A stretch of 64,000 nt of DNA from Candidatus Poseidoniaceae archaeon. GTDB lineage: Archaea > Thermoplasmatota > Poseidoniia > Poseidoniales > Poseidoniaceae. The notes under the pieces are model-generated. The model worked only from the letters and a program-made list of their open reading frames with translations. It was not told where the DNA came from and did no database searches. Position 1 is the stretch's first letter. The number at the start of each line of letters is the position of its first letter. Positions 606 through 55,165 of the stretch are shown piece by piece. The stretch covers positions 47,130 to 111,129 of the forward strand of contig CALHIR010000010.1 in NCBI GenBank assembly GCA_938030705.1, written 5' to 3'. A program made the position numbers and the translations under genes.

Positions 606-5273
<4,668 letters not shown>

Positions 5274-18064: not shown

Positions 18065-19747
18065 ATGTCTGAAGGCAAATACGCTGACTATGTCGAGGCC
18101 GTGCAGAAAGAATGCCCGGAAGCTGATGCGAAGGAAATCGCTGAGGCTTTCGCTAAGTACGAGCAGGAGTTTTACATCCCCCCGCAGGATGCCATGCGTT
18201 CGGTGCTTCGCCGATTCCAAAGCGGTACTTCGCCAACCCCAACAGGGAGTGGAACGACGCCCCGAGAGACCAAGAAAGTCGCTGGTCTTTCGGAACTAAC
18301 GGGCAACGACCGAGACGTTGAGATCGAAGTGGCCATCATCACCCACAACATCCGCGACCAAATGATTCGTGGTGAAGAAAAGCAAATCGCCTTTGGTATG
18401 CTCGAGGATAATCCGTGGGAAGAAAACGGTCAACGCACCCGTTGGGACTACAAGGATTGGGGCCCCCACGCGAACCTTGCTTCGGGAAGCATCGTTCGAA
18501 TTGAGGGCGCCAGCGTGAACGAATACAACGGTAAAATGTCGTTGAACATCAATCAATCCACCCGTATCGTCGTTCTGAAAGAAGGTGTGGCTACCGAGGT
18601 ATCTTCCAACGACCCCATCAACATCGACACCATTCCCAAGGAAGGCTACATTTGTGTTGTTGGCCGCGTGTTGGCCAGCCGACCAGACCAAATTCACCGA
18701 AAGGATGGTTCAGGCTCCATCGATGTCGTTCGTGGACGCCTTGCTGACGATACGGGAACCATCGGCTTTCTTTCATGGGAGCCATTTGAGCACGAAGTCG
18801 GCACCTTGTTGAAAATTGATGGTGCTCAGGTTCGGAGTTTCAGAGACACGCCAGAATTGAATTTTGGCCGCACCACGCGAATCGAAGTGTTTCATGACAC
18901 CAACTTTGCCAACCTCGAAACATTGGCTCAGAGTACTAAAACGGACATTGCAGGCCTACGGGACGGTTCCCGAGATGTGGACGCCGTTGTCCAAATCACG
19001 GAGATCACCAAGCGAACGTTCGAGCGAGATGGCGAAGAGAAATTCCTGTGGTCTGGTCAGATTGCCGACCCAACGGGTCGTTGCCGAATCAGCATTTGGG
19101 ACGGCCTTCCGTTTGAAGAGGGCGACTTGCCTGTTACATTGGAAATCCGGGGTGCAAGGGTTCGAGCCTGGCAGGGCATTCCAGACATTACCGTCGATAA
19201 GGCCGACCAGCTCACGGTGTTGGATACGCCACCTTGGGACGATGACATGGACCTCACCAATCACTCCGTCGACGTCCCGTTGACCGAAGTCGTGGCTGGC
19301 CCAAGTCGTGTCGGCATGAAAACCGGGGGGGTGCTCGTAAGCGTCCGAGAGGACTCAGGCTTCATTCTCCGATGCACGGAGTGCCGCCGCGTTCTGCGGG
19401 AGGGAGCGTGTTTTGATCACGGTGCGAACGAAGGAAACGAGGATATTCGTCTTCGAATGGTCATGGATAACGACGGTGTGACCGCAGCTGTTCTCGTGAA
19501 CAAAGAGGCGACGCTTGCCGCTTTGGAACTGACCTATGAAGACATGAAAGCAAAGGTCGAGGAACTCGGCGACCTCGGGTTTGTCCAGTTGGTACGTGAA
19601 CGTGTGCTTGGACGCCGCGTCCACGTTTCTGGTCGCAGTATTGTTGATGAGCAGGGCGCCATGGTGTTAGCCGATGGTTTCCAAATCGAACAACATGACG
19701 CCCAAATGCGGGCGTCTGAATTGCGAGCACAATGGGGGTGGGCTTGA
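18065..19747 (+). CDS. rpa: replication protein A (ssDNA-binding, multi-OB with zinc finger)
   Basis: 560 aa. Archaeal RPA N-terminus (MSEGKYADYVEAV...). Several OB folds. C4-type zinc motif CTECRRV...CFDHG. Confidence 0.8.
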   Translation: MSEGKYADYVEAVQKECPEADAKEIAEAFAKYEQEFYIPPQDAMRSVLRRFQSGTSPTPTGSGTTPRETKKVAGLSELTGNDRDVEIEVAIITHNIRDQMIRGEEKQIAFGMLEDNPWEENGQRTRWDYKDWGPHANLASGSIVRIEGASVNEYNGKMSLNINQSTRIVVLKEGVATEVSSNDPINIDTIPKEGYICVVGRVLASRPDQIHRKDGSGSIDVVRGRLADDTGTIGFLSWEPFEHEVGTLLKIDGAQVRSFRDTPELNFGRTTRIEVFHDTNFANLETLAQSTKTDIAGLRDGSRDVDAVVQITEITKRTFERDGEEKFLWSGQIADPTGRCRISIWDGLPFEEGDLPVTLEIRGARVRAWQGIPDITVDKADQLTVLDTPPWDDDMDLTNHSVDVPLTEVVAGPSRVGMKTGGVLVSVREDSGFILRCTECRRVLREGACFDHGANEGNEDIRLRMVMDNDGVTAAVLVNKEATLAALELTYEDMKAKVEELGDLGFVQLVRERVLGRRVHVSGRSIVDEQGAMVLADGFQIEQHDAQMRASELRAQWGWA

Positions 19748-20658
19748 TGGAGCGAGCAAGAATTGCCCGTCAACCGGCTCATCTTTTACTCGCTTCTGAA
19801 TTTGGAAGTGCGACGCTCCATGAGAAGGGTTCGGGTGAATACGACCCGTCTTTTGTTATCACCAAACTCGGTGCAAAAGTCAACCGTATTGTCGCAGCAG
19901 GTTTGCTTGAACGTTTGGAATTGCGGGAAACCAGCAACGGGTCTTCGCTCTACCAAGGGCAACTGAGAGACCCAACCGGGCTTCATTACTTCTCGATTGG
20001 AGAATACAATTCCGAGATGATGCAAGAGCTGGCCCACCAGTGGACCGAACGTCTCGACGATGGAGAGCCCCTTCTGGTGATGATGACTTCCAAGACCCGT
20101 TGGTACCAAACCGACGAGGGGGCGGTCTACACCTCATTGCGGCCCGAAGAAGCATGCGTGGTAAAGCGAGAAATCTATGCGAACTGGCTGTTGGATGCCT
20201 GCGAGGCGACCATGGCCCGCATGAACCAATTCACGTCCTCCCTGGAGGTGGAGCCGACGCTCGATGCCTTTGCTCGGGCTGAACTTCCTTCCAGTCTCCT
20301 TGCGGCTCGCAATCATTACGGCGAGGTGGACCTTGAACCATTCAAGCTCAATTTGATGCAGGCGCTGGACATAGCCGAAGGGAAAATTGAGGCGGCCACA
20401 ACGCCCCCTCCTGTCATGTCGCTGCCCGATGAGCCAGCCGCCACTTCAGAGGGGGGCCAGAACGTTGAGGCATTTTTGCTTCAAGCGATTGGGCATTTGG
20501 ATCAAGGCGAGGGCGTAACCTTCGACACGCTCTTGAAGAACGCCGTGGCTCGTGGTTTTGTTCGTGAGGTCGCTGAAGCCAAACTCGAAGAGATGCTCGA
20601 CGGCGGAACCCTTGATGAACCACGATTTGGGTGGTTCAGACTTGCCGCCAATGAATAA
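19732..20658 (+). CDS. RPA-associated protein (COG3390-like, OB fold)
   Basis: 308 aa. Overlaps the rpa stop by 16 nt. OB-like N-terminal half. Matches the rpa-rpap operon arrangement known in euryarchaea. Confidence 0.45.
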   Translation: MGVGLMERARIARQPAHLLLASEFGSATLHEKGSGEYDPSFVITKLGAKVNRIVAAGLLERLELRETSNGSSLYQGQLRDPTGLHYFSIGEYNSEMMQELAHQWTERLDDGEPLLVMMTSKTRWYQTDEGAVYTSLRPEEACVVKREIYANWLLDACEATMARMNQFTSSLEVEPTLDAFARAELPSSLLAARNHYGEVDLEPFKLNLMQALDIAEGKIEAATTPPPVMSLPDEPAATSEGGQNVEAFLLQAIGHLDQGEGVTFDTLLKNAVARGFVREVAEAKLEEMLDGGTLDEPRFGWFRLAANE

Positions 20659-20696
20659 TTTGGCTCCAACACATTCAAGTTCTTCTCACGCTGTGG

Positions 20697-21068
20697 TTGG
20701 AACAGGGGTCAAACATGGCTGGAATGGATTTCTTTATTCGCCCCGCATCGGGCACATCAAGTTCTGACTGGGTTCGAATTGCGAACGCTGACATCAAAGT
20801 GAGAATGACACGACGACTGACACGTACGGTCATCAGAGGTCAAGAAGGCGATGATTTGCACGATGAAGGTTCAGAATCGACCATGTACACCGTCCGTGGT
20901 GAGTTGAGCATTGATGAATACAAGCGAATCGTTGCCATGTTCCGCACCGGTCAACCGTACATTCACGATCCCTTTGAAGAGCGAGATGTAAAAGTGATCT
21001 TCGCCGTAATGGAGTACGACAGCTCAAATGAGAGTTTCCACTTTGAACTGCTTGAAGACGTGATTTGA
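20697..21068 (+). CDS. hypothetical protein (first gene of pilus-like operon)
   Basis: 123 aa. A 5-nt gap to the T2SSF-domain gene suggests co-transcription. Confidence 0.4.
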   Translation: MEQGSNMAGMDFFIRPASGTSSSDWVRIANADIKVRMTRRLTRTVIRGQEGDDLHDEGSESTMYTVRGELSIDEYKRIVAMFRTGQPYIHDPFEERDVKVIFAVMEYDSSNESFHFELLEDVI

Positions 21069-21072
21069 GGAG

Positions 21073-21660
21073 TTGATTGACGTGCGTGAACTGGAGGAAA
21101 AGCGAGAACTCCTCTATGTCATTCGCACCATGGACGTCCTGATGTCTTCTGGCGTGGGTTTGGAAGCGGCGCTTCACACCATTGGTCGGGGCGGCTATGG
21201 CATCATATCCGAAGATTTCTCATCGATGATGAAGCGGTTGCGAAAGGGTACCGGTGGTGGTATTGACAAGGAATTGAAGTCCATGATGAAAACGGCGCAA
21301 TCCTCTGGATACAAGCGCCTCCTCAACACCCTTTACACGAACGTTACACAAAATACGGATTTGGTTGAAACCCTGAAAAAGCAGGGTGCAAGGATGGAAG
21401 AAGACCGCTCTGCAGAGGTTGAAAAATACATCGAAACACTTGGTGGCGTCCCCGAAACCCTTCTTTCTATAGGAATGATTGGGCCGATTATTCTCGCCAT
21501 TGTTGGCTTGATTCCTCAACTGATGCCAAGTGACGGCTCGCTCATATCCTTCCCGGATGCAGCGGTCATGAGCAGTGTGGTGAACATGGGCTTGTTGGTG
21601 ACCCTTGTTTGCATGGCGCTCATCGGTCTCAAGGCGCACACAAAAGACCCGGGCTTGTGA
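21073..21660 (+). CDS. type II secretion system F-domain membrane protein (TadB/TadC/FlaJ-like), N-terminal half
   Basis: 195 aa. T2SSF helical domain (LYVIRTMDVLMSSGVGLEAALHTIG) followed by a TM bundle. Confidence 0.65.
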   Translation: MIDVRELEEKRELLYVIRTMDVLMSSGVGLEAALHTIGRGGYGIISEDFSSMMKRLRKGTGGGIDKELKSMMKTAQSSGYKRLLNTLYTNVTQNTDLVETLKKQGARMEEDRSAEVEKYIETLGGVPETLLSIGMIGPIILAIVGLIPQLMPSDGSLISFPDAAVMSSVVNMGLLVTLVCMALIGLKAHTKDPGL

Positions 21661-21669
21661 GGTGAACTG

Positions 21670-22401
21670 ATGCTGTTTGGTTTCCTCGAAACGTTCAATG
21701 AAACGCCGCTCCTTCTGTACTTGGCGGTGATCGCCATCGCATGTGCCGGGGGAGGCATCCCCCCAATGCTGGAGCGTCGGCGTCGCCGAGCGATTGAAAA
21801 CGCCCTCCCAACATTCCTTGAAGCGCTTTCTGATTCCGTGGGGGCCGGGCGTGGTTTGCAAGAAGCCATGATGGAACAATCAGAGTCCAGCGACGGCCTC
21901 CTGCCCTCCTTGCTCTCTGAAACCCTAAAGGAAGCCCATGCGTCTTCCTTCGAAGCAAGCCTCACTGCGTTCGCTGCCAAAACCCGCTCTAGCCAAGTTC
22001 AGCGCGTCATGATGTTGATTGAGACCGCCATACAACAGGATTCCAGTCTGCGCGATATCTTGAGTGATTTAAGCCGAGATTACGAGCGACTCAACGACCT
22101 AATGAACCAGCGAGAGAGTGAACTCTCAGGGCGAGGCATGCTCATCATCATCTTTGTCAGCGTTGGCTTACCTGTTCTGATTGCCTTTATTGTCGGCCTG
22201 TTCGCACCGGCCAGCAAAGGGTTCCAAATTACTGGTTTCAACCAAACTTTCAGCCTCTTTTTCGCCGCCGCATCTGCAGTTGGCGTCGGTGTTTCCGGAC
22301 GCATGATGGGTCGTCTCAGAGATACGTTGTGGTGGCTTCCCATGTGGATGGCCATCTCCATGGGGCTCTATCTTGGAGCCGTCAAAGCCGTAGGAGGTTA
22401 A
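21670..22401 (+). CDS. type II secretion system F-domain membrane protein, C-terminal half
   Basis: 243 aa. Second T2SSF domain plus TM helices. In the same reading frame as 21073..21660, separated from it only by a TGA and 9 nt. Confidence 0.65.
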   Translation: MLFGFLETFNETPLLLYLAVIAIACAGGGIPPMLERRRRRAIENALPTFLEALSDSVGAGRGLQEAMMEQSESSDGLLPSLLSETLKEAHASSFEASLTAFAAKTRSSQVQRVMMLIETAIQQDSSLRDILSDLSRDYERLNDLMNQRESELSGRGMLIIIFVSVGLPVLIAFIVGLFAPASKGFQITGFNQTFSLFFAAASAVGVGVSGRMMGRLRDTLWWLPMWMAISMGLYLGAVKAVGG

Positions 22402-22404
22402 TGC

Positions 22405-23646
22405 ATGTCAGAACAAATTTTGGAACAATACGGAAGAGTGACCATTTACACCGAAGCCAATCACCCTTCTCCAATCTACCATGTTGAGGGTGAAATCCAG
22501 GCCAATCCATACGGTGATCTTGCCGCTTTGTTTGAAGACGATGCCCTTGAAGAGGTGATGTACAACGGCGGAACCCAATGTGTGAAGGTCGCCCACCGGA
22601 ACCATGGAATGTGCCGAACCAATATTTGGATTGACGATGAATCCGGCCTTCAAATCGCCAAGAACATCGCCTCATTCACCAACGTGCCTTTGGGTGATGG
22701 TCCTGGGCTTGTGCCCATCTTCGACGGCCGTCTTCCCGACGGGTCCCGTGTCAACGGAACCATCCCTCCGGTCTCGCCTGACGGGCCAACGCTAACGATT
22801 CGTAAGTTCAAGGAAGACCCGCTCACCATGATCGACCTCGTGAACTTCGGCACGGTGAATTCCCGCTTGGCCGCCATGATGTGGGTCTGGATTGAAGGGC
22901 TTGACAGTCGTCCAGCCAACTTTGTCATCGCAGGTGGAACCGGTTCAGGTAAAACCACGACGCTGAACTGTCTCGGCATGTACATTCCGTGGTCCCGTCG
23001 GCTTCTGACGGTCGAAGACACCGCTGAATTGCAAGTCTATCACGACCACTGGCTCCGTATGGAAACTCGCCGTGAGCGCCCCGATGGAACCCAGGAAGTT
23101 GACATGAACGATTGCCTAAAGTCAAGCCTGCGTATGCGACCTGACCGCATCATCGTCGGTGAAGTTCGCGGACCGGAGTGCGCCACTTTACTCACGGCCA
23201 TGAACACGGGACACGACGGTTCTTTTGGCTCGCTCCACGCCAACACGGCTCAAGAAACGGTGACTCGTATGATCAATCCACCGATGAGCGTACCGCCCAT
23301 CATGCTGAGCGGTCTCGACCTCATCATCATTCAAGCCCGGCTCCACGTCAACGGAAAAACGGCCCGAAAAATCACCGAAGTAGCAGAAGTTGCTGGGATG
23401 GAAGGCGACAAACCTCGTCTGAACGCCATTTGGAAGTACAATGCTGCAACCGACCAAATTGAAGAAACTGGCATTCCATCCAAACTCCGGGAAACCATCT
23501 GCAATGCAGCTGGCGTCACCCCCGATGTCTTCGAGAGGCATGTCGCACAACGACAAGCCATCATTGAGGACCTCTGCCAGCGTGGTATTTCAGATATCCA
23601 AACGGTGACTTCGGTGGTGCAGAACTTTTACGCACAGCAGCACTGA
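22405..23646 (+). CDS. type II/IV secretion system ATPase (TadA/VirB11/FlaI family)
   Basis: 413 aa. Walker A (IAGGTGSGKTTTLN), Asp box, Walker B (DRIIVGEVRG), His box (GHDGSFGSLHAN). Confidence 0.85.
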   Translation: MSEQILEQYGRVTIYTEANHPSPIYHVEGEIQANPYGDLAALFEDDALEEVMYNGGTQCVKVAHRNHGMCRTNIWIDDESGLQIAKNIASFTNVPLGDGPGLVPIFDGRLPDGSRVNGTIPPVSPDGPTLTIRKFKEDPLTMIDLVNFGTVNSRLAAMMWVWIEGLDSRPANFVIAGGTGSGKTTTLNCLGMYIPWSRRLLTVEDTAELQVYHDHWLRMETRRERPDGTQEVDMNDCLKSSLRMRPDRIIVGEVRGPECATLLTAMNTGHDGSFGSLHANTAQETVTRMINPPMSVPPIMLSGLDLIIIQARLHVNGKTARKITEVAEVAGMEGDKPRLNAIWKYNAATDQIEETGIPSKLRETICNAAGVTPDVFERHVAQRQAIIEDLCQRGISDIQTVTSVVQNFYAQQH

Positions 23647-23647
23647 A

Positions 23648-25384
23648 TCATCCATTCAGGCGGTTGAGCAGTTCATCAACACGGTCGATTTTTCCTCGGA
23701 TACGTGCAAGACTCTCCGAGGCATCGGACACCGATTCTGCAACTTCTCTTTCCTCGTCGGGCGAAGAGACTGGGTCTGGTTTGAAACTGGCAGCGAGCGA
23801 TTTCAACTCGGTCACAATGGCATCAACTTCCGTTTCGGTTACCAAAACACCCGGTGCGATGCGTGGAATCTCACTGGGTGAGATATAACCGAGTTCAGCA
23901 CCCAAGATACCTGCACAGGCCAACACTCGTGGGCGAAGTTGGGCGGTGTTGACATCGTATCCCTTCGATTCAAGGAAGCGAATCACGAGCGCTTGCTGGG
24001 CTTCATCAAAGCCTTCTTCCCCAGATTCAAGGATGGTTTGAACGAGTTCCTCAAAAGAGGCGATGTTGCGTTCGAGACGCTCTATGGTCATGCGCTCGTT
24101 TTCCGGCATGTGGACCGCTCCGCGATGGAGGATTCTCATCATGCGCTGGCGACGCTGAACAACTGGGTCGTTGAGAGCCTGTGATTCAGCGATTTCAATA
24201 TGGAGGTCAAACAGGGCATGCAAGCGCCCGGAGACGCTTGGAACACGGAGGTCAAGGTTCAGGTCTCTTCCTTCTTGCTCGAAGGCCATTCGTGCCTTCA
24301 CGACGTCCGTTGCGTGAAGTGCGAGAATGTTCTCTAATCGGTCTCGCAGGGTGCTGCGAACCTCCTCAAACCGTCGCAGAGCTTCTCGTTCGCTCCAAGA
24401 TTGCGGCAAGGCAATCGCCGCATTGCTTTCGTTTTGAACTTTGAAATCAAGTTCCATGATCATCTGTGCGACCGCTTGATGCACCTGCGGGAGGTCGGTG
24501 GCAAAACCCTGGCTTCGCAAGGATTGAATGAAGGCGTTCATGTCCTCTTGATTGGTGGTCGAACTGACCATAAGGAAATCACGGGCCATGGCATGGATTT
24601 CTGCGGTCCGCTCCCGGAGTTCAATCAATGCGGTTTCGACTTCAAGGCTGTGGGTTTCATCTCCGCTTGTATGTTGAATCATCGGCGGTACGTCGCTGGT
24701 GTCTTCGGCTGGTTCAGGGCGAAGTTGGTGTTCAAGTTCGGCATCGCTTCGTGAGGATGAAACATCGTGGCCGATGCTGGCAAGGTCTTCTTTGAGGGAA
24801 ACCTCCTCCTCAAACGTCCATCCTTCGTCATGGCCTTCCACAAAGGTCGAGACGGTCTCTTCCAATGTTTCGGGGGCTTGGGGCGCCATCACAGCGGCCG
24901 CTTTTGGTACGCTGACGGGTCCACGAGGTCTTCGGAGGCTTTTCTTGACTTTGCCCCACGCATTTTCTTGCGAGGCCAGGACGCCGGCGACCCGAGCGAG
25001 GAGGGCTTGTTTATTTCCAGAAAGCGTGAGTTCGAGGTCTTTGCACATGGCGTGAAGCTCGTCTTTGGTCATCTCGTCAAGGCGTTCAATGGCGAGGGAT
25101 TTGGGGTCGTGGTTCAAATGAAGGTGCAGTCGCTGCCTTCTCGCCTTGATGGAACCTGACTTTTTAATTCCGAACAGGCCCAAAATCTCTCCCAAGTCGC
25201 TGTTAGGGATGCTTCGTAGTCCAGCAGGCGAAAAATCCCAATCGGGGAAAATGAGATGTTGAATCAACCGTGCACGCAAGGATTCAACCGGTCCGGATTT
25301 AGCTATCCCGTGTTCTTGGGCGAGGGTTTTCAGATCGTCAAAACGGGCTTGGTAGAGTTGGCCCAACAACGCTGATGTGTCCAT
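23648..25384 (-). CDS. SAP-domain-containing coiled-coil protein
   Basis: Two SAP-like helix-extension-helix motifs (LKTLAQEHGIAKSGPVESLRARLIQHL; MTKDELHAMCKDLELTLSGNKQALLARVAGVL). The long acidic/helical remainder has no further family match. Start trimmed to Met33. Confidence 0.5.
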   Translation of the reverse strand: MDTSALLGQLYQARFDDLKTLAQEHGIAKSGPVESLRARLIQHLIFPDWDFSPAGLRSIPNSDLGEILGLFGIKKSGSIKARRQRLHLHLNHDPKSLAIERLDEMTKDELHAMCKDLELTLSGNKQALLARVAGVLASQENAWGKVKKSLRRPRGPVSVPKAAAVMAPQAPETLEETVSTFVEGHDEGWTFEEEVSLKEDLASIGHDVSSSRSDAELEHQLRPEPAEDTSDVPPMIQHTSGDETHSLEVETALIELRERTAEIHAMARDFLMVSSTTNQEDMNAFIQSLRSQGFATDLPQVHQAVAQMIMELDFKVQNESNAAIALPQSWSEREALRRFEEVRSTLRDRLENILALHATDVVKARMAFEQEGRDLNLDLRVPSVSGRLHALFDLHIEIAESQALNDPVVQRRQRMMRILHRGAVHMPENERMTIERLERNIASFEELVQTILESGEEGFDEAQQALVIRFLESKGYDVNTAQLRPRVLACAGILGAELGYISPSEIPRIAPGVLVTETEVDAIVTELKSLAASFKPDPVSSPDEEREVAESVSDASESLARIRGKIDRVDELLNRLNG

Positions 25385-25495
25385 TGATGCCCCACCTCTG
25401 CGGCTTTTCCCGCATTGAAAGCATATATGTCTTCGCTGTCCGACCATGCTAAGAGTGCAGGTTCTGGCGGCTGTTTGCATATGCCGAGAGGGTTG

Positions 25496-40450: not shown

Positions 40451-42193
40451 ATGCCTGTAGGTCTTCCCCCTCGTGGAGGTCCACTTGGGCGAACCAGAGG
40501 CCGGATTTCAGCGAGTTCGCTGACGACCTATTTGCGATGTCCAAAACAGTGGCTCTTTGCCTATCAAATCGGTCTTCAAGGGCCCACGCGACCCTCACAA
40601 ATCTTGGGTATCGTGCTTGAAGACGCTCTCTGCGAGTTGTTGATGATGCACCCACCAAAGGTTTCCAGTTTTGAGGAGTTGAACACTTGGGCCTCTGGCA
40701 ATGTCGCCGACGTGGCTCAGCGAGCTTTGGCTACCGGCGAGACGATGTGGGATGAGGTGCTTTGGAAAACAAGCGAAGACGCATGGGATGAAGTCGATGT
40801 AGCCTCGTTGGAGGAACGTCTCGCTGGCGGTTTGAGCCTGTTCTATGAAGAAGTCCACGCATGCTTCAATCAAAACGGAGGACCCTACCTCCATCAACGA
40901 AGAACCGGTCAACAGCCGTTTGTGGTTCCCGAACCTGCTCAAAGCACCGTGCCGGTCTTCCCGCTTCCCGACAAGGTGAGGGATGTTGAGAAACGAGCAT
41001 GGGCAGCCTCTTCTTCGCCGTCATGGTCGGCACCCGAAGCCCCCATCACCTGGCATGAAGCCTGGGAGTGTGCTCGACCGTGGTTCAAAGACCCGCGTGT
41101 CCATCAGCCCCAACGCCTTTACCACCCGGATGGTTGGGCCTCAGGTGAATTGGATATGGTCCTTCGTTGGGACGGTCAGGTTCGAATCGTCGATATCAAA
41201 TCAGGTTCTCCGGGCTCGGCTTTTGCCTCCTCTCTTGAACACCAACTCCGGTTTTACGCATGGTTGTGGCATGAAACTCATGACGGTCAAACCGTCAACG
41301 GCATGGAAGGCTGGTACCTCAACGGCGGGCATCGCGTCCCGTATGCTCCGCCGGCCAAGAACGAGATGGCGGGGCTCACCTCCACCTTCCACGAACACCA
41401 CCGCGCCATGCAGCGTGCTGAAAAAGGCGTGAAGTCCTTCCCCGTGGCTCCTTCAGAGGCCTGTCAGGGTGAAGCAACAGGTTGTGGCTGGTGTGCTGTG
41501 TCTCGCACGGCCGCTGGCGAATGGTCCGTGCCCGAGCATCTCTCTTGGATTACGACCCTGCCGGAGGTGTCCATGAAAACCCCCTATGCGCCGCTTGGTG
41601 ATGTCCAAGGGCGCGTCGCCGTCCGAGGTCGTTTAACCGGGGCTTGGGGGCCGATGCCCAATCATTTCGCTGAACCCGTTTTGGGTGCGGTTTTGGTCGT
41701 TGGTCAGCAACACATCATCGTTGAGGAAAGCGAACCCGGTGCATTTTCTCAACTGCATGACCACATGGAACAGGAGATCGTGCTGGTGGACGCACTTCCG
41801 GGGGTGTGGCGGGACCAACCTCGTCTCTATGTTGATGCCACCACTGTTTTGCATTCTCACGCCGATGTGGATAAGGCAACGCTCCCGGAACTGACACGTC
41901 TGGGCCTGCTTCGGACACGAACCAACGTCAAGGGGCATGTCATCGGCATCCGTCGCCGTTCCGGTACGCGTGTTGATGGAAAACCATGGGGGATGCTCAC
42001 GCTGATGCTCTGGGATGGACATCATCTCGCCGAGGTGGTGGCCTTCGGTGCCAGCATCAATCAACGCTTGCTGAGTTTGCGACCCGGCGATGGCGTGGCG
42101 ATGACGGGCGTCGAACTTGGGTGGCGGTCGGGTCTTCTGCAACTCCGTATCGACAATCGGAAAACCCGATTGGAAACTTTCACTCAACATTGA
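40451..42193 (+). CDS. Cas4/RecB-family Fe-S PD-(D/E)xK nuclease fused to C-terminal OB-fold domains (paralog A)
   Basis: 580 aa. N-terminal Cys motif SASSLTTYLRCPKQW. Nuclease core (GELDMVLRWDG...RIVDIKSG, QLRFYAWLW). C-terminal Cys triad CQGEATGCGWC. Then two RPA/SSB-like OB-fold stretches (VAVRGRLTG..., GHVIGIRRRSG...WDGHHLAEVVAFG). Confidence 0.7.
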   Translation: MPVGLPPRGGPLGRTRGRISASSLTTYLRCPKQWLFAYQIGLQGPTRPSQILGIVLEDALCELLMMHPPKVSSFEELNTWASGNVADVAQRALATGETMWDEVLWKTSEDAWDEVDVASLEERLAGGLSLFYEEVHACFNQNGGPYLHQRRTGQQPFVVPEPAQSTVPVFPLPDKVRDVEKRAWAASSSPSWSAPEAPITWHEAWECARPWFKDPRVHQPQRLYHPDGWASGELDMVLRWDGQVRIVDIKSGSPGSAFASSLEHQLRFYAWLWHETHDGQTVNGMEGWYLNGGHRVPYAPPAKNEMAGLTSTFHEHHRAMQRAEKGVKSFPVAPSEACQGEATGCGWCAVSRTAAGEWSVPEHLSWITTLPEVSMKTPYAPLGDVQGRVAVRGRLTGAWGPMPNHFAEPVLGAVLVVGQQHIIVEESEPGAFSQLHDHMEQEIVLVDALPGVWRDQPRLYVDATTVLHSHADVDKATLPELTRLGLLRTRTNVKGHVIGIRRRSGTRVDGKPWGMLTLMLWDGHHLAEVVAFGASINQRLLSLRPGDGVAMTGVELGWRSGLLQLRIDNRKTRLETFTQH

Positions 42194-42215
42194 ACCACCA
42201 TCAAGGCACTGAGGC

Positions 42216-44099
42216 TTGAAAAAGAGTGGGTGCTTTGGTCGTTTCATGCCCGTGCACATGGCCAAGAGAGAGAACGATGCCGTCGGGCCTTACAACCGGA
42301 TGTCGGCCAGTCAAGCCAACACCTACTTGGCTTGTCCCCGCCTTTGGTTTTATCAGAAAGTTTACCGGTTCAAAATGCCCCAAATTCCGGTGCTTTTTGT
42401 CGGGAGGGCGGTTGAGGAAGCCGTCTGTCATGTGCTGCGTGAGTCTCCAGGTTTTATCGTTTCAAACGCAAGCCAAAACGCCATTGGTTCTTCGCCATAC
42501 AACGAGGATGGTCAACCCCTGCAAGGAAAGGAGTACGTTTGGCCAGCGATGGGTTTGATGCCATTTCCCCCCGAAGAATTGCCGCAATCCAGAGCTGCGC
42601 TCGAAGCGTGGGCTATCGAGCGGTGCCGCATCCATCTGCCGCCGGCGTTGGAGCGCATGCGGCTGGAATGGGAAAAGGATGAACGAAAAGCAGGGGAGTG
42701 GAGTCAGGTCGATCCCGACCGATGCATGGCCATGGTTGAGAGCGGCCTCCGATTTCACCTTGATGAAGTTGAACGCTGTTTTAACCAAGACGGGGGGCCG
42801 AACAAAGAGGAGTGGCGTCGAGGTGAACGGGCGCTCTGGCCCGCTCCCGATGGTTTTCCACACCAACCCTTCGAAGGGGGTCACCCCCTCCGTGGCGAAG
42901 GTCATGTTTCATGGACCGAGGCCTGGGAACTCGCGCGCCCTTGGTTCGTTGACCCAAGTGCACCAAAGTTCACCATGAATGCCATTCATCCCGAGCATTG
43001 GTTTCAGGGGGAATACGACTTGGTTTATCGCTGGTCCGGAACGCCGGTCATCGTTGATCTCAAAGCGAGTTTGGGAGCAAACGACCGTTCGGGAGATTAT
43101 GTTGAACAACTCAAGATGTACGCTATGTTGTGGTACGTTACCCACAACCGACAAGAAACGGTTGGTGGTCTCCAAATTTGGTACCTTGGCCACCCCAGCA
43201 TCAAGTCCATCCCCGTCCCCAGTTCGGAGGAGATGGAAGCGATTGAGGCGGAGATGAAAGCCCTCTGGGACGACTTGAAAGACGCCACACCATCACTCGC
43301 TGATTGTCCGCCTGCGCCCAAAGCGATGCGAGGTTTCTCGCCGGGTGGAAAGCCGTCAGAGCCGCCTTCGACATCCCGGTGCGAAGGGTGTGATTGGCGT
43401 GCCGTGTGTCCGGGGGGCGAAGGGACTGACGAACCACGACTTTCGTCTTCCGTTCAACTTCCAAGTTTCAATCAACAAACGCCACTTCAGGAAATTGGTC
43501 TGCTCAACCCACGAGCGACTGTCCGGGGGGAATTGTTCTCAGTGGGCTATGTAAGAGATAACATACCTTTGAGGATGACGTTGAAACAAGGCACCAATTC
43601 GGCTCACATTCAAGTGGTCTCAACGGTCAATGCTGATGGTGAACCAACGGTTGCTGTGCCCGCCATGAAAGGCGCTAAAGTTCTGCTTAAGGACGCCGTC
43701 TTCACCATCAATTGGAAAGGTGAAATCGTTCTGAAAATGGACCCCTTCGCTCGGCTAGAGGCGGACGATGACCCCGATGTGGAATCCTTTGACTTGTTTG
43801 ATTTTCAAGCGAAGCATAACGTTGGTGGCACCGTGATCTACACTTATGAAAAATCAGGTGTTGGTAAAAACGGGAAGGCTTGGTCTCGAAAAGGCCTCAT
43901 GTTGATGGACCATACGGGTGCCTGTAAGGTCGAGGGTTGGGCAGACGACTGGAATTCACAATACGCCATGCTTACGGTTGGCGACGTCGTTGTTATCGCA
44001 AACGTTGGTTTGGATGCGTGGGCTTCCGAAATCCGTTGTGATTATACTCGGAATTCGCGACTGCAAATCATTGAGCGTGTGGACCGCTCAGCCGCCTGA
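42216..44099 (+). CDS. Cas4/RecB-family Fe-S PD-(D/E)xK nuclease fused to C-terminal OB-fold domains (paralog B)
   Basis: 627 aa. Same architecture as paralog A: YLACPRLWFY; GEYDLVYRW...VIVDLKAS; EQLKMYAMLW; CEGCDWRAVC; RPA-like OB fold (MLMDHTGACKVEGWADDW...GDVVVIANVG). The start may be Met15 (about 42258). Confidence 0.7.
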   Translation: MKKSGCFGRFMPVHMAKRENDAVGPYNRMSASQANTYLACPRLWFYQKVYRFKMPQIPVLFVGRAVEEAVCHVLRESPGFIVSNASQNAIGSSPYNEDGQPLQGKEYVWPAMGLMPFPPEELPQSRAALEAWAIERCRIHLPPALERMRLEWEKDERKAGEWSQVDPDRCMAMVESGLRFHLDEVERCFNQDGGPNKEEWRRGERALWPAPDGFPHQPFEGGHPLRGEGHVSWTEAWELARPWFVDPSAPKFTMNAIHPEHWFQGEYDLVYRWSGTPVIVDLKASLGANDRSGDYVEQLKMYAMLWYVTHNRQETVGGLQIWYLGHPSIKSIPVPSSEEMEAIEAEMKALWDDLKDATPSLADCPPAPKAMRGFSPGGKPSEPPSTSRCEGCDWRAVCPGGEGTDEPRLSSSVQLPSFNQQTPLQEIGLLNPRATVRGELFSVGYVRDNIPLRMTLKQGTNSAHIQVVSTVNADGEPTVAVPAMKGAKVLLKDAVFTINWKGEIVLKMDPFARLEADDDPDVESFDLFDFQAKHNVGGTVIYTYEKSGVGKNGKAWSRKGLMLMDHTGACKVEGWADDWNSQYAMLTVGDVVVIANVGLDAWASEIRCDYTRNSRLQIIERVDRSAA

Positions 44100-44288
44100 T
44101 GAGATGGTGGTTACCAAAAGCTCCACGTGCTGTTGGAGCGGGGTTGAATGCGGTAGAACCGTTCCGTCGTAACTGACGATCACCATCGAGGGCAAGACAT
44201 TGGCCAGTTCCAAAGCCTTGCGAACGGTGGTACCGGGGTCAACTTGGACGGTGATGTCAACATCCCTCCCGTGAAAGCGGACGTCCAT
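44088..44288 (-). CDS. MoaD/ThiS/SAMP-type ubiquitin-like small sulfur-carrier protein
   Basis: 66 aa (MDVRFHGRDVDITVQVDPGTTVRKALELANVLPSMVIVSYDGTVLPH...TISSGG) with a beta-grasp pattern ending in Gly-Gly. The longer 120-aa ORF (44088..44450) reads through the tRNA-Ser sequence and is an artefact. Confidence 0.6.
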   Translation of the reverse strand: MDVRFHGRDVDITVQVDPGTTVRKALELANVLPSMVIVSYDGTVLPHSTPLQQHVELLVTTISSGG

Positions 44289-44343
44289 GACATCCCGACC
44301 AAACATCATGCTTATGACGGTGGCGCAAGAGCCGGGGGATGGA

Positions 44344-44426
44344 GCCGAGGTCGCATAGCCCGGTATTGCGGTGGATTCGAAATCCACTGTCCCTTGGACG
44401 CGGGGGTTCAAATCCCTCTCTCGGCG
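44344..44426 (+). tRNA. tRNA-Ser (anticodon CGA), class II with long variable arm
   Basis: Manual fold. Acceptor GCCGAGG/TCTCGGC (one G-U pair). D-stem GCA/TGC. Anticodon stem GTGGA/TCCAC with loop TTCGAAA, giving anticodon CGA. Variable stem GTCC/GGAC. T-stem GGGGG/CCCTC with loop TTCAAAT. Discriminator G. The opposite-strand ORF translation RDLNPR...FESTAIPGYAT is the typical through-tRNA artefact. Confidence 0.8.
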
Positions 44427-44433
44427 CTCTGTT

Positions 44434-45189
44434 TCACATGTAGAACGCATCGTGAGAGGTGGTCATTTCCTTCACGAGGTCTTCCTTCACGGAGGGTGCC
44501 ATGGCTTCGAGTTTTTCACGTAACCATTCGCCACCGCCGGTGGGGACGGTCAAGCCAAAGCCAAACCATCGCTCGAGGTGTTCAATCACCCTTTGAGAAC
44601 CCATGATGTCGGCGCTGGTACCAACGCTGGTCGCAATGACGCAAGCCGAATTGAGTTCGTAAAGCGGGCCCATGGAAGCGAGCAAAGCGGGCATGCCAAC
44701 GGCACCAGATTTGGGTTTGTCTCGTCGGACATCAACCCCCATGCTTTCCATGTCAATTCGGAAGGATGCCGAACTTGCAACCGCAAAGGTCTCTTTGTTC
44801 TCCGGCTTGTCAAACATGCCAGCGAGCACCAGTACTGTCGCTACGCCTTGGTCTTGGAAGAAGGCCATTAATTCCCCGGCCAACACGGATTGTTGACTCG
44901 GTTCGGTGGGTTGTGTTTTTCCAGTCAGGGTGATCAACGGGATTCCACTGGGTGTTTGTATTTGGCGAACGGTCAGATGCGGGGGTGCGAGCAAGCCATC
45001 CTCATCCAAGTGGGCATGCGGGGGCAAGCCAACGGGGTGAAGGCGAACGAGTTCAACCGATTCGTGAAGTTCGCAAACGGAGTCTACGGCCATCTTACCG
45101 ATGTTGCCAACGCCGGGGAAGGCCACCAAGGCTGTTGCACCACGGGGGAGTTCGGTGGTGCCTCCTCGCCATTCAATTCGCATGGTCAT
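44434..45189 (-). CDS. PAC2 (proteasome assembly chaperone 2) family protein
   Basis: 251 aa. N-terminal LVAFPGVGNIGKMAVD matches the PAC2 G-x-G-N-V/I-G motif. Confidence 0.5.
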   Translation of the reverse strand: MTMRIEWRGGTTELPRGATALVAFPGVGNIGKMAVDSVCELHESVELVRLHPVGLPPHAHLDEDGLLAPPHLTVRQIQTPSGIPLITLTGKTQPTEPSQQSVLAGELMAFFQDQGVATVLVLAGMFDKPENKETFAVASSASFRIDMESMGVDVRRDKPKSGAVGMPALLASMGPLYELNSACVIATSVGTSADIMGSQRVIEHLERWFGFGLTVPTGGGEWLREKLEAMAPSVKEDLVKEMTTSHDAFYM

Positions 45190-54313: not shown

Positions 54314-55165
54314 ATGTCGCCACCGAAGAAAGTTGATGTTAATCCAGACGAGCAAATCGTACTTCGCGAGTGGCGTGAACTGATCGTGGAAAACTACGAA
54401 AATGACATTGCTCGGTTGGAAGGCTTGGAGGAAAGTGTGCAGGGTTTTCATGTTGAACACGCCCTCATGGACCAAAAAGACACGCTCCGTCGCTTCTTTC
54501 ACGAAAAGCCAACGCGAGCCTTGGAACTCGGTTCGAGAATCATGCGAGAACAATTCGACAACCACCATATTCCAACTCGGCCGGTCCTGCGAGTTGTTGG
54601 TCTTTCCGAAAATTACCTCAACCGTGTGGACGACTTAAGGATGCGTGACCGAAACGATTTGGTTTCCCTTGACGTGAAAATCAACGAGGTGTCTCACGCT
54701 TACGGCTGGCTCAAGTTGGCCGTCTACGAATGCATGGACTGTGAATCGCGCGTGGAAGTTCCCCAGCGGCGAGCTCGTGAACGAGAGAGCCCCGTGCTCT
54801 GCCGCCCTTGCCTCAACCAAGCCATGGAGGGCTTCAAGAACACCGATATCCCAAGGAGCTTCATTCGTCCACAAAGTGATTTCCTGATGGTCGTTGAAGA
54901 GTGCAAGTACGAGGATGTTCAGGACATCAGCATGAGTCAAATCACGTACAACAGCGAACATCATCTCATCAACTGTTCAACCCGGAATCAAATTCTTGGG
55001 ACCATCACCGATGATCTGGTCGACCAACTTCGGCCGTCGACCTACATGCGAATCAACGGCATCGTGCGTGTTCAGCCCGTACCTGACCGGACCTTCTCCA
55101 AAGATACCCGTCGCCTTCTCTCCATTGACATCTTGAGCGTCGAGGAACTTCATATTGAGGAATGA
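54314..55165 (+). CDS. MCM N-terminal-domain-only protein (zinc finger plus OB fold, no AAA+ module)
   Basis: 283 aa. AVYECMDCESRVEV...VLCRPC (C4 zinc motif) followed by an OB-fold segment (ILGTITDDLVDQLRPSTYMRINGIVRV) that aligns with the MCM N-terminal domain C. The gene ends 3 nt before an opposite-strand gene, so no ATPase domain follows. Confidence 0.55.
   Translation: MSPPKKVDVNPDEQIVLREWRELIVENYENDIARLEGLEESVQGFHVEHALMDQKDTLRRFFHEKPTRALELGSRIMREQFDNHHIPTRPVLRVVGLSENYLNRVDDLRMRDRNDLVSLDVKINEVSHAYGWLKLAVYECMDCESRVEVPQRRARERESPVLCRPCLNQAMEGFKNTDIPRSFIRPQSDFLMVVEECKYEDVQDISMSQITYNSEHHLINCSTRNQILGTITDDLVDQLRPSTYMRINGIVRVQPVPDRTFSKDTRRLLSIDILSVEELHIEE

Follow-up and report, generated by a model that had tools for sequence, protein, structure and literature searches.

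Two T2SSF genes parted by an in-frame TGA very probably encode separate halves of a type IV pilus-like platform in Candidatus Poseidoniales

When two neighbouring open reading frames (ORFs) share a frame and are parted by a single stop codon, are they two genes or one gene that has been broken? The question arises in a 64,000-nucleotide (nt) stretch of DNA from a Candidatus Poseidoniaceae archaeon (contig CALHIR010000010.1; hereafter the window), where ORF1 and ORF2 lie in the same frame with only a TGA and 9 nt between them (GGTGAACTG) and each encode one T2SSF domain. An earlier reading made from the letters alone (the sequence-only reading) had described this arrangement, which we confirm from the sequence and from Pfam, and had offered four accounts of it: authentic gene fission, pseudogenisation by a nonsense mutation, a sequencing or assembly error, or stop-codon read-through. 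The first of these stands, as an ancient, conserved and already described event, while the other three do not. We are highly confident that ORF1 and ORF2 are authentic, separately translated genes, whose sequences indicate that they would form the two halves of a type IV pilus-like inner-membrane platform in Candidatus Poseidoniales.

Both genes lie on the plus strand, as do all features described below unless stated otherwise. ORF2, the C-half type of platform subunit, occupies 21670..22401, starts with ATG and encodes 243 amino acids (aa). ORF1, the N-half type, closes with the TGA at 21658..21660; its longest form begins at TTG 21073 (21073..21660, 195 aa), but the true start is probably GTG 21082 (21082..21660, 192 aa), the position used by gene calls on independent contigs and in orthologs, where the aligned codon is ATG, GTG or TTG. 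Pfam gave a single T2SSF match (PF00482) in each protein, above the gathering cutoff of 25.2 bits in both cases, with 42.6 bits for ORF1 (E = 7.2e-11, residues 17-144) and 31.6 bits for ORF2 (E = 1.8e-7, residues 49-174). A Kyte-Doolittle scan, which is a crude method, places two hydrophobic segments after the domain in ORF1, and in ORF2 finds at least two segments, with one N-terminal to the domain and others at the C-terminus. Both proteins thus have the features of a T2SSF platform protein, namely the domain above threshold and, as far as this crude scan can place them, membrane helices. Against NCBIfam, ORF2 gave only a sub-threshold match to UpsF, covering model positions 280-443 of 484 and hence the C-terminal half, and ORF1 gave no match; searches of PDB sequences with ORF1 and with an ORF2 profile found no solved relatives.

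We compared the junction between the two genes across 86 loci, comprising 80 species-representative genomes and six independent assemblies, at 85 of which the junction is readable. At all 85 a stop codon follows the conserved C-terminus "...PGL" of ORF1, TGA in 84 and TAA in one. What varies is the length of the spacer between this stop and ORF2, which is 9 nt at 44 junctions, 4 nt at 15, 1 nt at 11, 10 nt at seven, 6 nt at five and 3 nt at three. ORF2 is in frame with ORF1 (spacers of 3, 6 or 9 nt) at 52 of the 85 scored junctions and out of frame at the other 33; the original Marine Group II genome, CM001443.1, has a 4-nt spacer and so belongs to the second set. An apparent frameshift in ORF1 of one locus (L062; DAME01000014.1, UBA88) was set aside, as it comes from a run of N at 3490-3880 of the scaffold, a gap or masked stretch that mimics a disruption. 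The spacer of that locus, judged by eye to be 4 nt, is not among the 15 scored as such.

Protein searches were made at a much larger scale. A query consisting of ORF1 and ORF2 fused, run against 5.8 billion proteins, returned no fused ortholog among its best 120 matches; nearly all of these are proteins of about 243 aa (243-247) that align with the ORF2 half only, at 63-93% identity, and the one exception is an ORF1-type protein. ORF1 has 709 homologs, the best 120 of which are all 192-200 aa long. The homologs carry the names Candidatus Poseidoniales, Poseidonia or Poseidoniaceae (Marine Group II, Thermoplasmatota). One locus, L005 (NZEQ01000070.1), is deposited as 'Verrucomicrobiales bacterium isolate ARS100'; its ORF2 is 92% identical to ours and its synteny is complete, and it is probably a contig mis-binned within that metagenome-assembled genome (MAG). 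Across the orthologs we find two genes uniformly, with start signals of their own, an outcome that the sequence-only reading itself had named as a refutation.

Any metagenome-derived sequence may in principle carry a false stop codon introduced during sequencing or assembly, and this general possibility is all that speaks for such an error here. At least 22 contigs, from assemblies made independently, contain the exact ORF2 protein in the same layout of 192 + 243 aa, and the indexed assembly collection has this protein in 51 blocks. In six contigs that were assembled independently and come from Logan, NCBI and ENA, not only the protein but also the layout and the junction (GGCTTGTGAGGTGAACTGATG) are identical, which excludes an assembly or sequencing error, and the stop is carried by all 80 species-level relatives. 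We therefore regard a false stop as vanishingly unlikely.

A recent nonsense mutation, which would have inactivated a single FlaJ/TadC gene and pseudogenised the pilus system, draws on nothing beyond the shared frame and the joint two-domain content of the pair. Against it stands the occurrence of the stop at the same place in every readable orthologous junction, many of them out of frame, together with the presence of the split in a distant Thermoplasmatota genome (described below) and the lack of a fused ortholog among the matches listed above. Moreover, ORF1 and ORF2 are both intact in every complete ortholog. Median ratios of nonsynonymous to synonymous substitution (dN/dS), calculated against 80 loci with our own implementation of the Nei-Gojobori method and with synonymous sites near saturation, were 0.066 for ORF1 and 0.038 for ORF2, compared with 0.031 for the gene upstream (p117) and 0.011 for the ATPase gene downstream. 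Both halves are under strong purifying selection and neither is decaying. The two marks of a pseudogene, a disruption that orthologs lack and relaxed selection, are thus missing, and we consider pseudogenisation extremely unlikely.

The third possibility is programmed read-through or recoding of the TGA (as selenocysteine, as tryptophan or by a near-cognate tRNA), by which at least the lineages with in-frame spacers would make a fused platform protein of some 440 aa. In its favour are the 52 in-frame junctions and the fact that low-level leakiness of TGA is a general phenomenon. However, because 33 of the 85 junctions, those with spacers of 1, 4 or 10 nt, are out of frame, the system cannot depend on a fused read-through product. 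Nor do we take the in-frame excess as a sign of selection for frame, as the counts follow clades, with one large clade of 9-nt spacers, and three in-frame spacer classes stand against three that are out of frame. The chance that two tightly packed genes share a frame is 1/3, so the coincidence in the window is not beyond chance, and the same frame is one of several neutral spacer states.

The codon itself is also unremarkable. Of 50 long ORFs in the window, 44 end in TGA, six in TAA and none in TAG, so that the in-frame TGA closing ORF1 is the normal stop codon of this genome, and indeed its main one. Rfam scans around the locus found no SECIS or other recoding element, the only match near it being a chance, sub-threshold C/D-box, and the spacer holds a Shine-Dalgarno (SD) site rather than a conserved peptide. 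With neither a conserved phase nor a recoding signal, we judge read-through or selenocysteine insertion to be very unlikely. As for the other stop codons, TAG and TAA are rare as trinucleotides over both strands of the whole window (386 and 421 occurrences, against 2649 for TGA); ORF2 ends in TAG in six related genomes, and TAG is therefore still read as a stop in the lineage.

How, then, would ORF2 be started? The stop and the 9-nt spacer read T-GAGGTGA-ACTG-ATG, in which GAGGTGA (21659..21665) matches the SD consensus AGGAGGTGATC over 7 nt, shares bases with the ORF1 stop and ends 4 nt before the ATG. It is among the strongest SD sites of the window, where 23 of the 49 gene starts are preceded by SD matches of at least 5 nt and the background rate is 0.083 per 16-nt window. 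Where the spacer is 9 or 10 nt long, almost every ortholog keeps GAGGTG. Spacers of 1-4 nt are too short to hold an SD site behind the stop, and the clades that have them presumably reach ORF2 by termination-reinitiation.

The junctions on either side of the pair are built in a similar way. Upstream, 13 nt before ORF1 as read from GTG 21082, lies the end of p117, a gene for a conserved 117-aa cytoplasmic protein (20715..21068), whose stop (TGA, 21066-21068) is overlapped by an SD-like GAGGAG at 21067..21072, 9 nt before the GTG of ORF1; in orthologs this junction reads TGAGGAGGTG, TGATGAGGTG or TGAGGTG. Downstream, the ATPase gene begins 3 nt after the ORF2 stop (0-6 nt in orthologs) and is preceded by AGGAGGT at 22392..22398, within the end of ORF2 and 6 nt before the ATPase ATG. 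One design, in which a stop overlaps or abuts the SD site of the next gene (TGAGGAG, TGAGGTGA, AGGAGGTTAA), thus recurs at 21066-21072, 21658-21665 and 22392-22401, and likewise in the 80 species-level loci (L001-L080). With their neighbouring junctions alike, p117, ORF1, ORF2 and the ATPase gene are thus packed in a single operon, in which they run in the same direction and each gene has its own ribosome-binding site.

The age of the split was approached with a profile search of 1.84 billion representative proteins. Beyond Poseidoniales the nearest relatives again have a single domain and a length of about 240-370 aa, and some are annotated from Thermoplasmatota or Thermoplasmatales MAGs, while proteins of two-domain size (>550 aa) match only from E ~3e-10 on, through their C-terminal half. 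A distant Thermoplasmatota MAG carries T2SSF (180 aa), T2SSF (242 aa) and T2SSE (443 aa) genes in the same order with an 8-nt spacer, among genes unrelated to those of the window, and another metagenomic contig has a tandem pair of 279 + 314 aa. This distant cassette and the second tandem pair indicate that the split predates the order Poseidoniales.

Two routes could have led to such a pair, fission of a two-domain gene or tandem duplication of a single-domain T2SSF gene, with the same function today in either case. The ORF2 profile scored best in the C-terminal T2SSF domain of all 16 two-domain proteins tried (41-54 bits, against no more than 13 bits in the N-terminal half), and the ORF1 profile scored best in the N-terminal domain of 10 of the 16, at a weak 4-20 bits. 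This colinearity of ORF1 and ORF2 with the N- and C-terminal domains favours fission of a two-domain ancestor. Duplication has on its side that the two proteins are homologous and both T2SSF, that their closest relatives are all single-domain proteins, and that tadB/tadC were formerly explained in this way (cited in PMC6668835). We keep it as a minor rival because the N-domain signal of ORF1 is weak, but ORF1 and ORF2 are barely alike (21% identity, E = 0.09, a marginal similarity) and yet match different halves of two-domain proteins in colinear order, which is the argument that backs fission for Tad and Epd (PMC6668835). Duplication is accordingly improbable in our estimate, and we conclude that a two-domain platform gene underwent an ancient fission, one that is conserved and has been described before, and that the two-gene state goes back to this and not to a local event at the TGA.

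Split platforms of this kind are known. In the Epd-like pili of archaea and the Tad pili of bacteria, two contiguous single-T2SSF platform genes followed by an ATPase gene have been ascribed to an ancient fission (Denise et al. 2019, PMC6668835), and epdJ and epdK are each essential for piliation (Pohlschroder and Esquivel 2015, PMC4371748). Two tadC-like genes likewise occur in many euryarchaeal type IV pilus (T4P) loci, and the pilin genes often lie at other sites (Makarova et al. 2016, PMC4858521). The present locus resembles EpdJ/EpdK and the ATPase EpdL of Methanococcus maripaludis in having two contiguous single-T2SSF genes and then an ATPase gene, in an archaeal host and with an origin by fission. 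It differs from Epd in the extra conserved 117-aa gene ahead of the pair, in the gene after the ATPase gene, which encodes an opposite-strand SAP-domain protein and not a FlaH-type secondary ATPase, and in that no EppA or short pilins were found in the window.

With TadB/TadC (CpaG/CpaH) and TadA/CpaF the locus shares a platform split into two single-T2SSF proteins, but the Tad order is tadA-tadB-tadC, with the ATPase gene first, whereas this locus, like Epd, puts the platform genes ahead of it; in contrast to bacterial Tad, the host is an archaeon and no secretin or TadZ lies nearby. The ATPase (22405..23646, 413 aa; Pfam T2SSE, E = 2.8e-42), a secretion/assembly ATPase of the TadA/CpaF/FlaI superfamily and the presumed motor partner of the platform pair, is among solved structures closest to CpaF (1.1e-63) and Archaeoglobus GspE2 (~1e-63). 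CpaF thus matches it as well as the best solved archaeal homolog does, and FlaI matches it less well (1.5e-43). Its scores fall below the cutoffs of both the TIGR03819 (TadA) model (206.9, cutoff 373) and the FlaI model (251, cutoff 550).

The same domain family also includes FlaJ (ArlJ) and UpsF, with whose N- and C-terminal halves ORF1 and ORF2 are colinear, and homologs of ORF1 are named 'archaellum biogenesis protein FlaJ (TadC family)' by JGI. FlaJ and UpsF, however, are single polypeptides of about 480-780 aa that match at E 3e-10 or weaker, whereas the locus has two conserved separate genes. In an archaellum locus both T2SSF domains would belong to one FlaJ/ArlJ polypeptide, whose gene shares an operon with those for archaellins and FlaF/G/H/I; in the window we found neither archaellin nor FlaF/G/H genes. 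A further parallel is offered by the T4P loci of euryarchaeal clade 2 and crenarchaeal clade 4 (Makarova et al. 2016), which likewise have an ATPase/TadC module with the TadC-like part in two genes, and whose pilins are often encoded elsewhere (PMC4858521). A term search of that paper did not find Marine Group II genomes (PMC4858521). Our literature searches returned no paper describing this Poseidoniales cassette specifically, and the account by Rinke et al. 2019 goes no further than 'flagella' genes and the abundance of flaJ.

On these likenesses, a working scheme for the locus can be proposed. Translation of ORF1 would end at the ordinary TGA, and that of ORF2 would begin at its own ATG by means of the overlapping SD site, or, in relatives with 1-4-nt spacers, presumably by coupling as described above. 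By analogy with EpdJ/EpdK and TadB/TadC, the two products may then come together as a heteromeric platform that corresponds to a single two-domain FlaJ/PilC protein. Such a platform would dock a hexameric ATPase and drive the passage of pilin-like subunits, whose genes would lie elsewhere in the genome, out of the membrane and into a filament. The heteromer, the assembly of a pilus and the coupling mechanism are all modelled on characterised families.

Taken together, the locus has the two contiguous single-T2SSF genes of a split platform (in 86 loci and in a distant Thermoplasmatota genome), the adjoining ATPase gene and matches to the N- and C-terminal halves. Several points nevertheless weigh against this account. 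The N-half match of ORF1 is weak at 4-20 bits and is lacking for six of the 16 two-domain proteins. Pfam scans and a signal-peptide regular expression found no pilin-like gene, prepilin peptidase or FlaH/TadZ-type secondary ATPase in the 64-kb window, so that pilus assembly is argued here from homology. For short pilins and EppA, the regular expression was a crude one for class III signal peptides; it returned nothing but false positives from the interior of ORF1 and ORF2. As to the secondary ATPase, of FlaH or TadZ/FleN type, that accompanies the main ATPase in split-platform systems, none stands beside it here and no KaiC/FlaH or MinD/FleN family match was obtained in the window, and it may be encoded elsewhere. 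Because several Epd-like and Tad features were not found in the window and the likeness drawn here is one of gene organisation and sequence similarity, we do not claim membership of the Epd-like clade; rather, the locus is organised like, and would work like, an Epd/Tad split platform.

The gene p117, which ends 13 nt upstream of ORF1, probably opens the tightly packed cassette, and its product is predicted to adopt a phage tail-tube/Hcp-like fold. The wider block at 18065..25480, consisting of RPA (560 aa), p308, p117, ORF1, ORF2, the ATPase gene and the reverse-strand gene for the SAP-domain protein (610 aa), keeps its synteny in all Poseidoniales loci long enough to show it (L001-L080), and sits among information-processing genes. 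The ATPase is unusually conserved, being 86-99% identical across Poseidoniales where RPA is 49-94% identical. We treat these points as leads only. A more speculative view of these genes is that the four-gene cassette is a distinct minimal type IV filament machine and not an ordinary adhesive pilus locus, which we regard as doubtful. It draws on the p117 fold, the split platform, the very conserved CpaF-like ATPase, the lack of a pilin, peptidase or secondary ATPase gene close by and the adjoining RPA genes in all Poseidoniales genomes examined, which may together point that way; the machine may then serve in DNA uptake or transfer, with p117 perhaps a ring-forming partner of the ATPase. Even so, the in-frame TGA has no special role.

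Elsewhere in the window there is a gene for Cgi121, which shows that this DNA is archaeal. The only Rfam match in the window is a tRNA gene at 44344..44426, which overlaps a 120-aa ORF on the minus strand (44088..44450), and that ORF is for this reason probably not a gene. Two adjacent large proteins of 580 and 627 aa, encoded at 40451..44099, have PD-(D/E)XK nuclease domains, and a 283-aa protein (54314..55165) matches the MCM OB domain only.

As split platform genes were already known, the finding itself is an ordinary one, and its main use is as a caution for annotation: pairs of single-T2SSF genes in archaea should not be called pseudogenes, merged, or taken as candidates for read-through. 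The lineages that have a split platform of the Epd/Tad style now include Marine Group II, whose members outnumber all other planktonic archaea in surface oceans, and this fits the published view of an ancient fission. The very strong conservation of the cassette, with its ATPase 86-99% identical across the order and its perfect synteny, suggests that it is important for these organisms.
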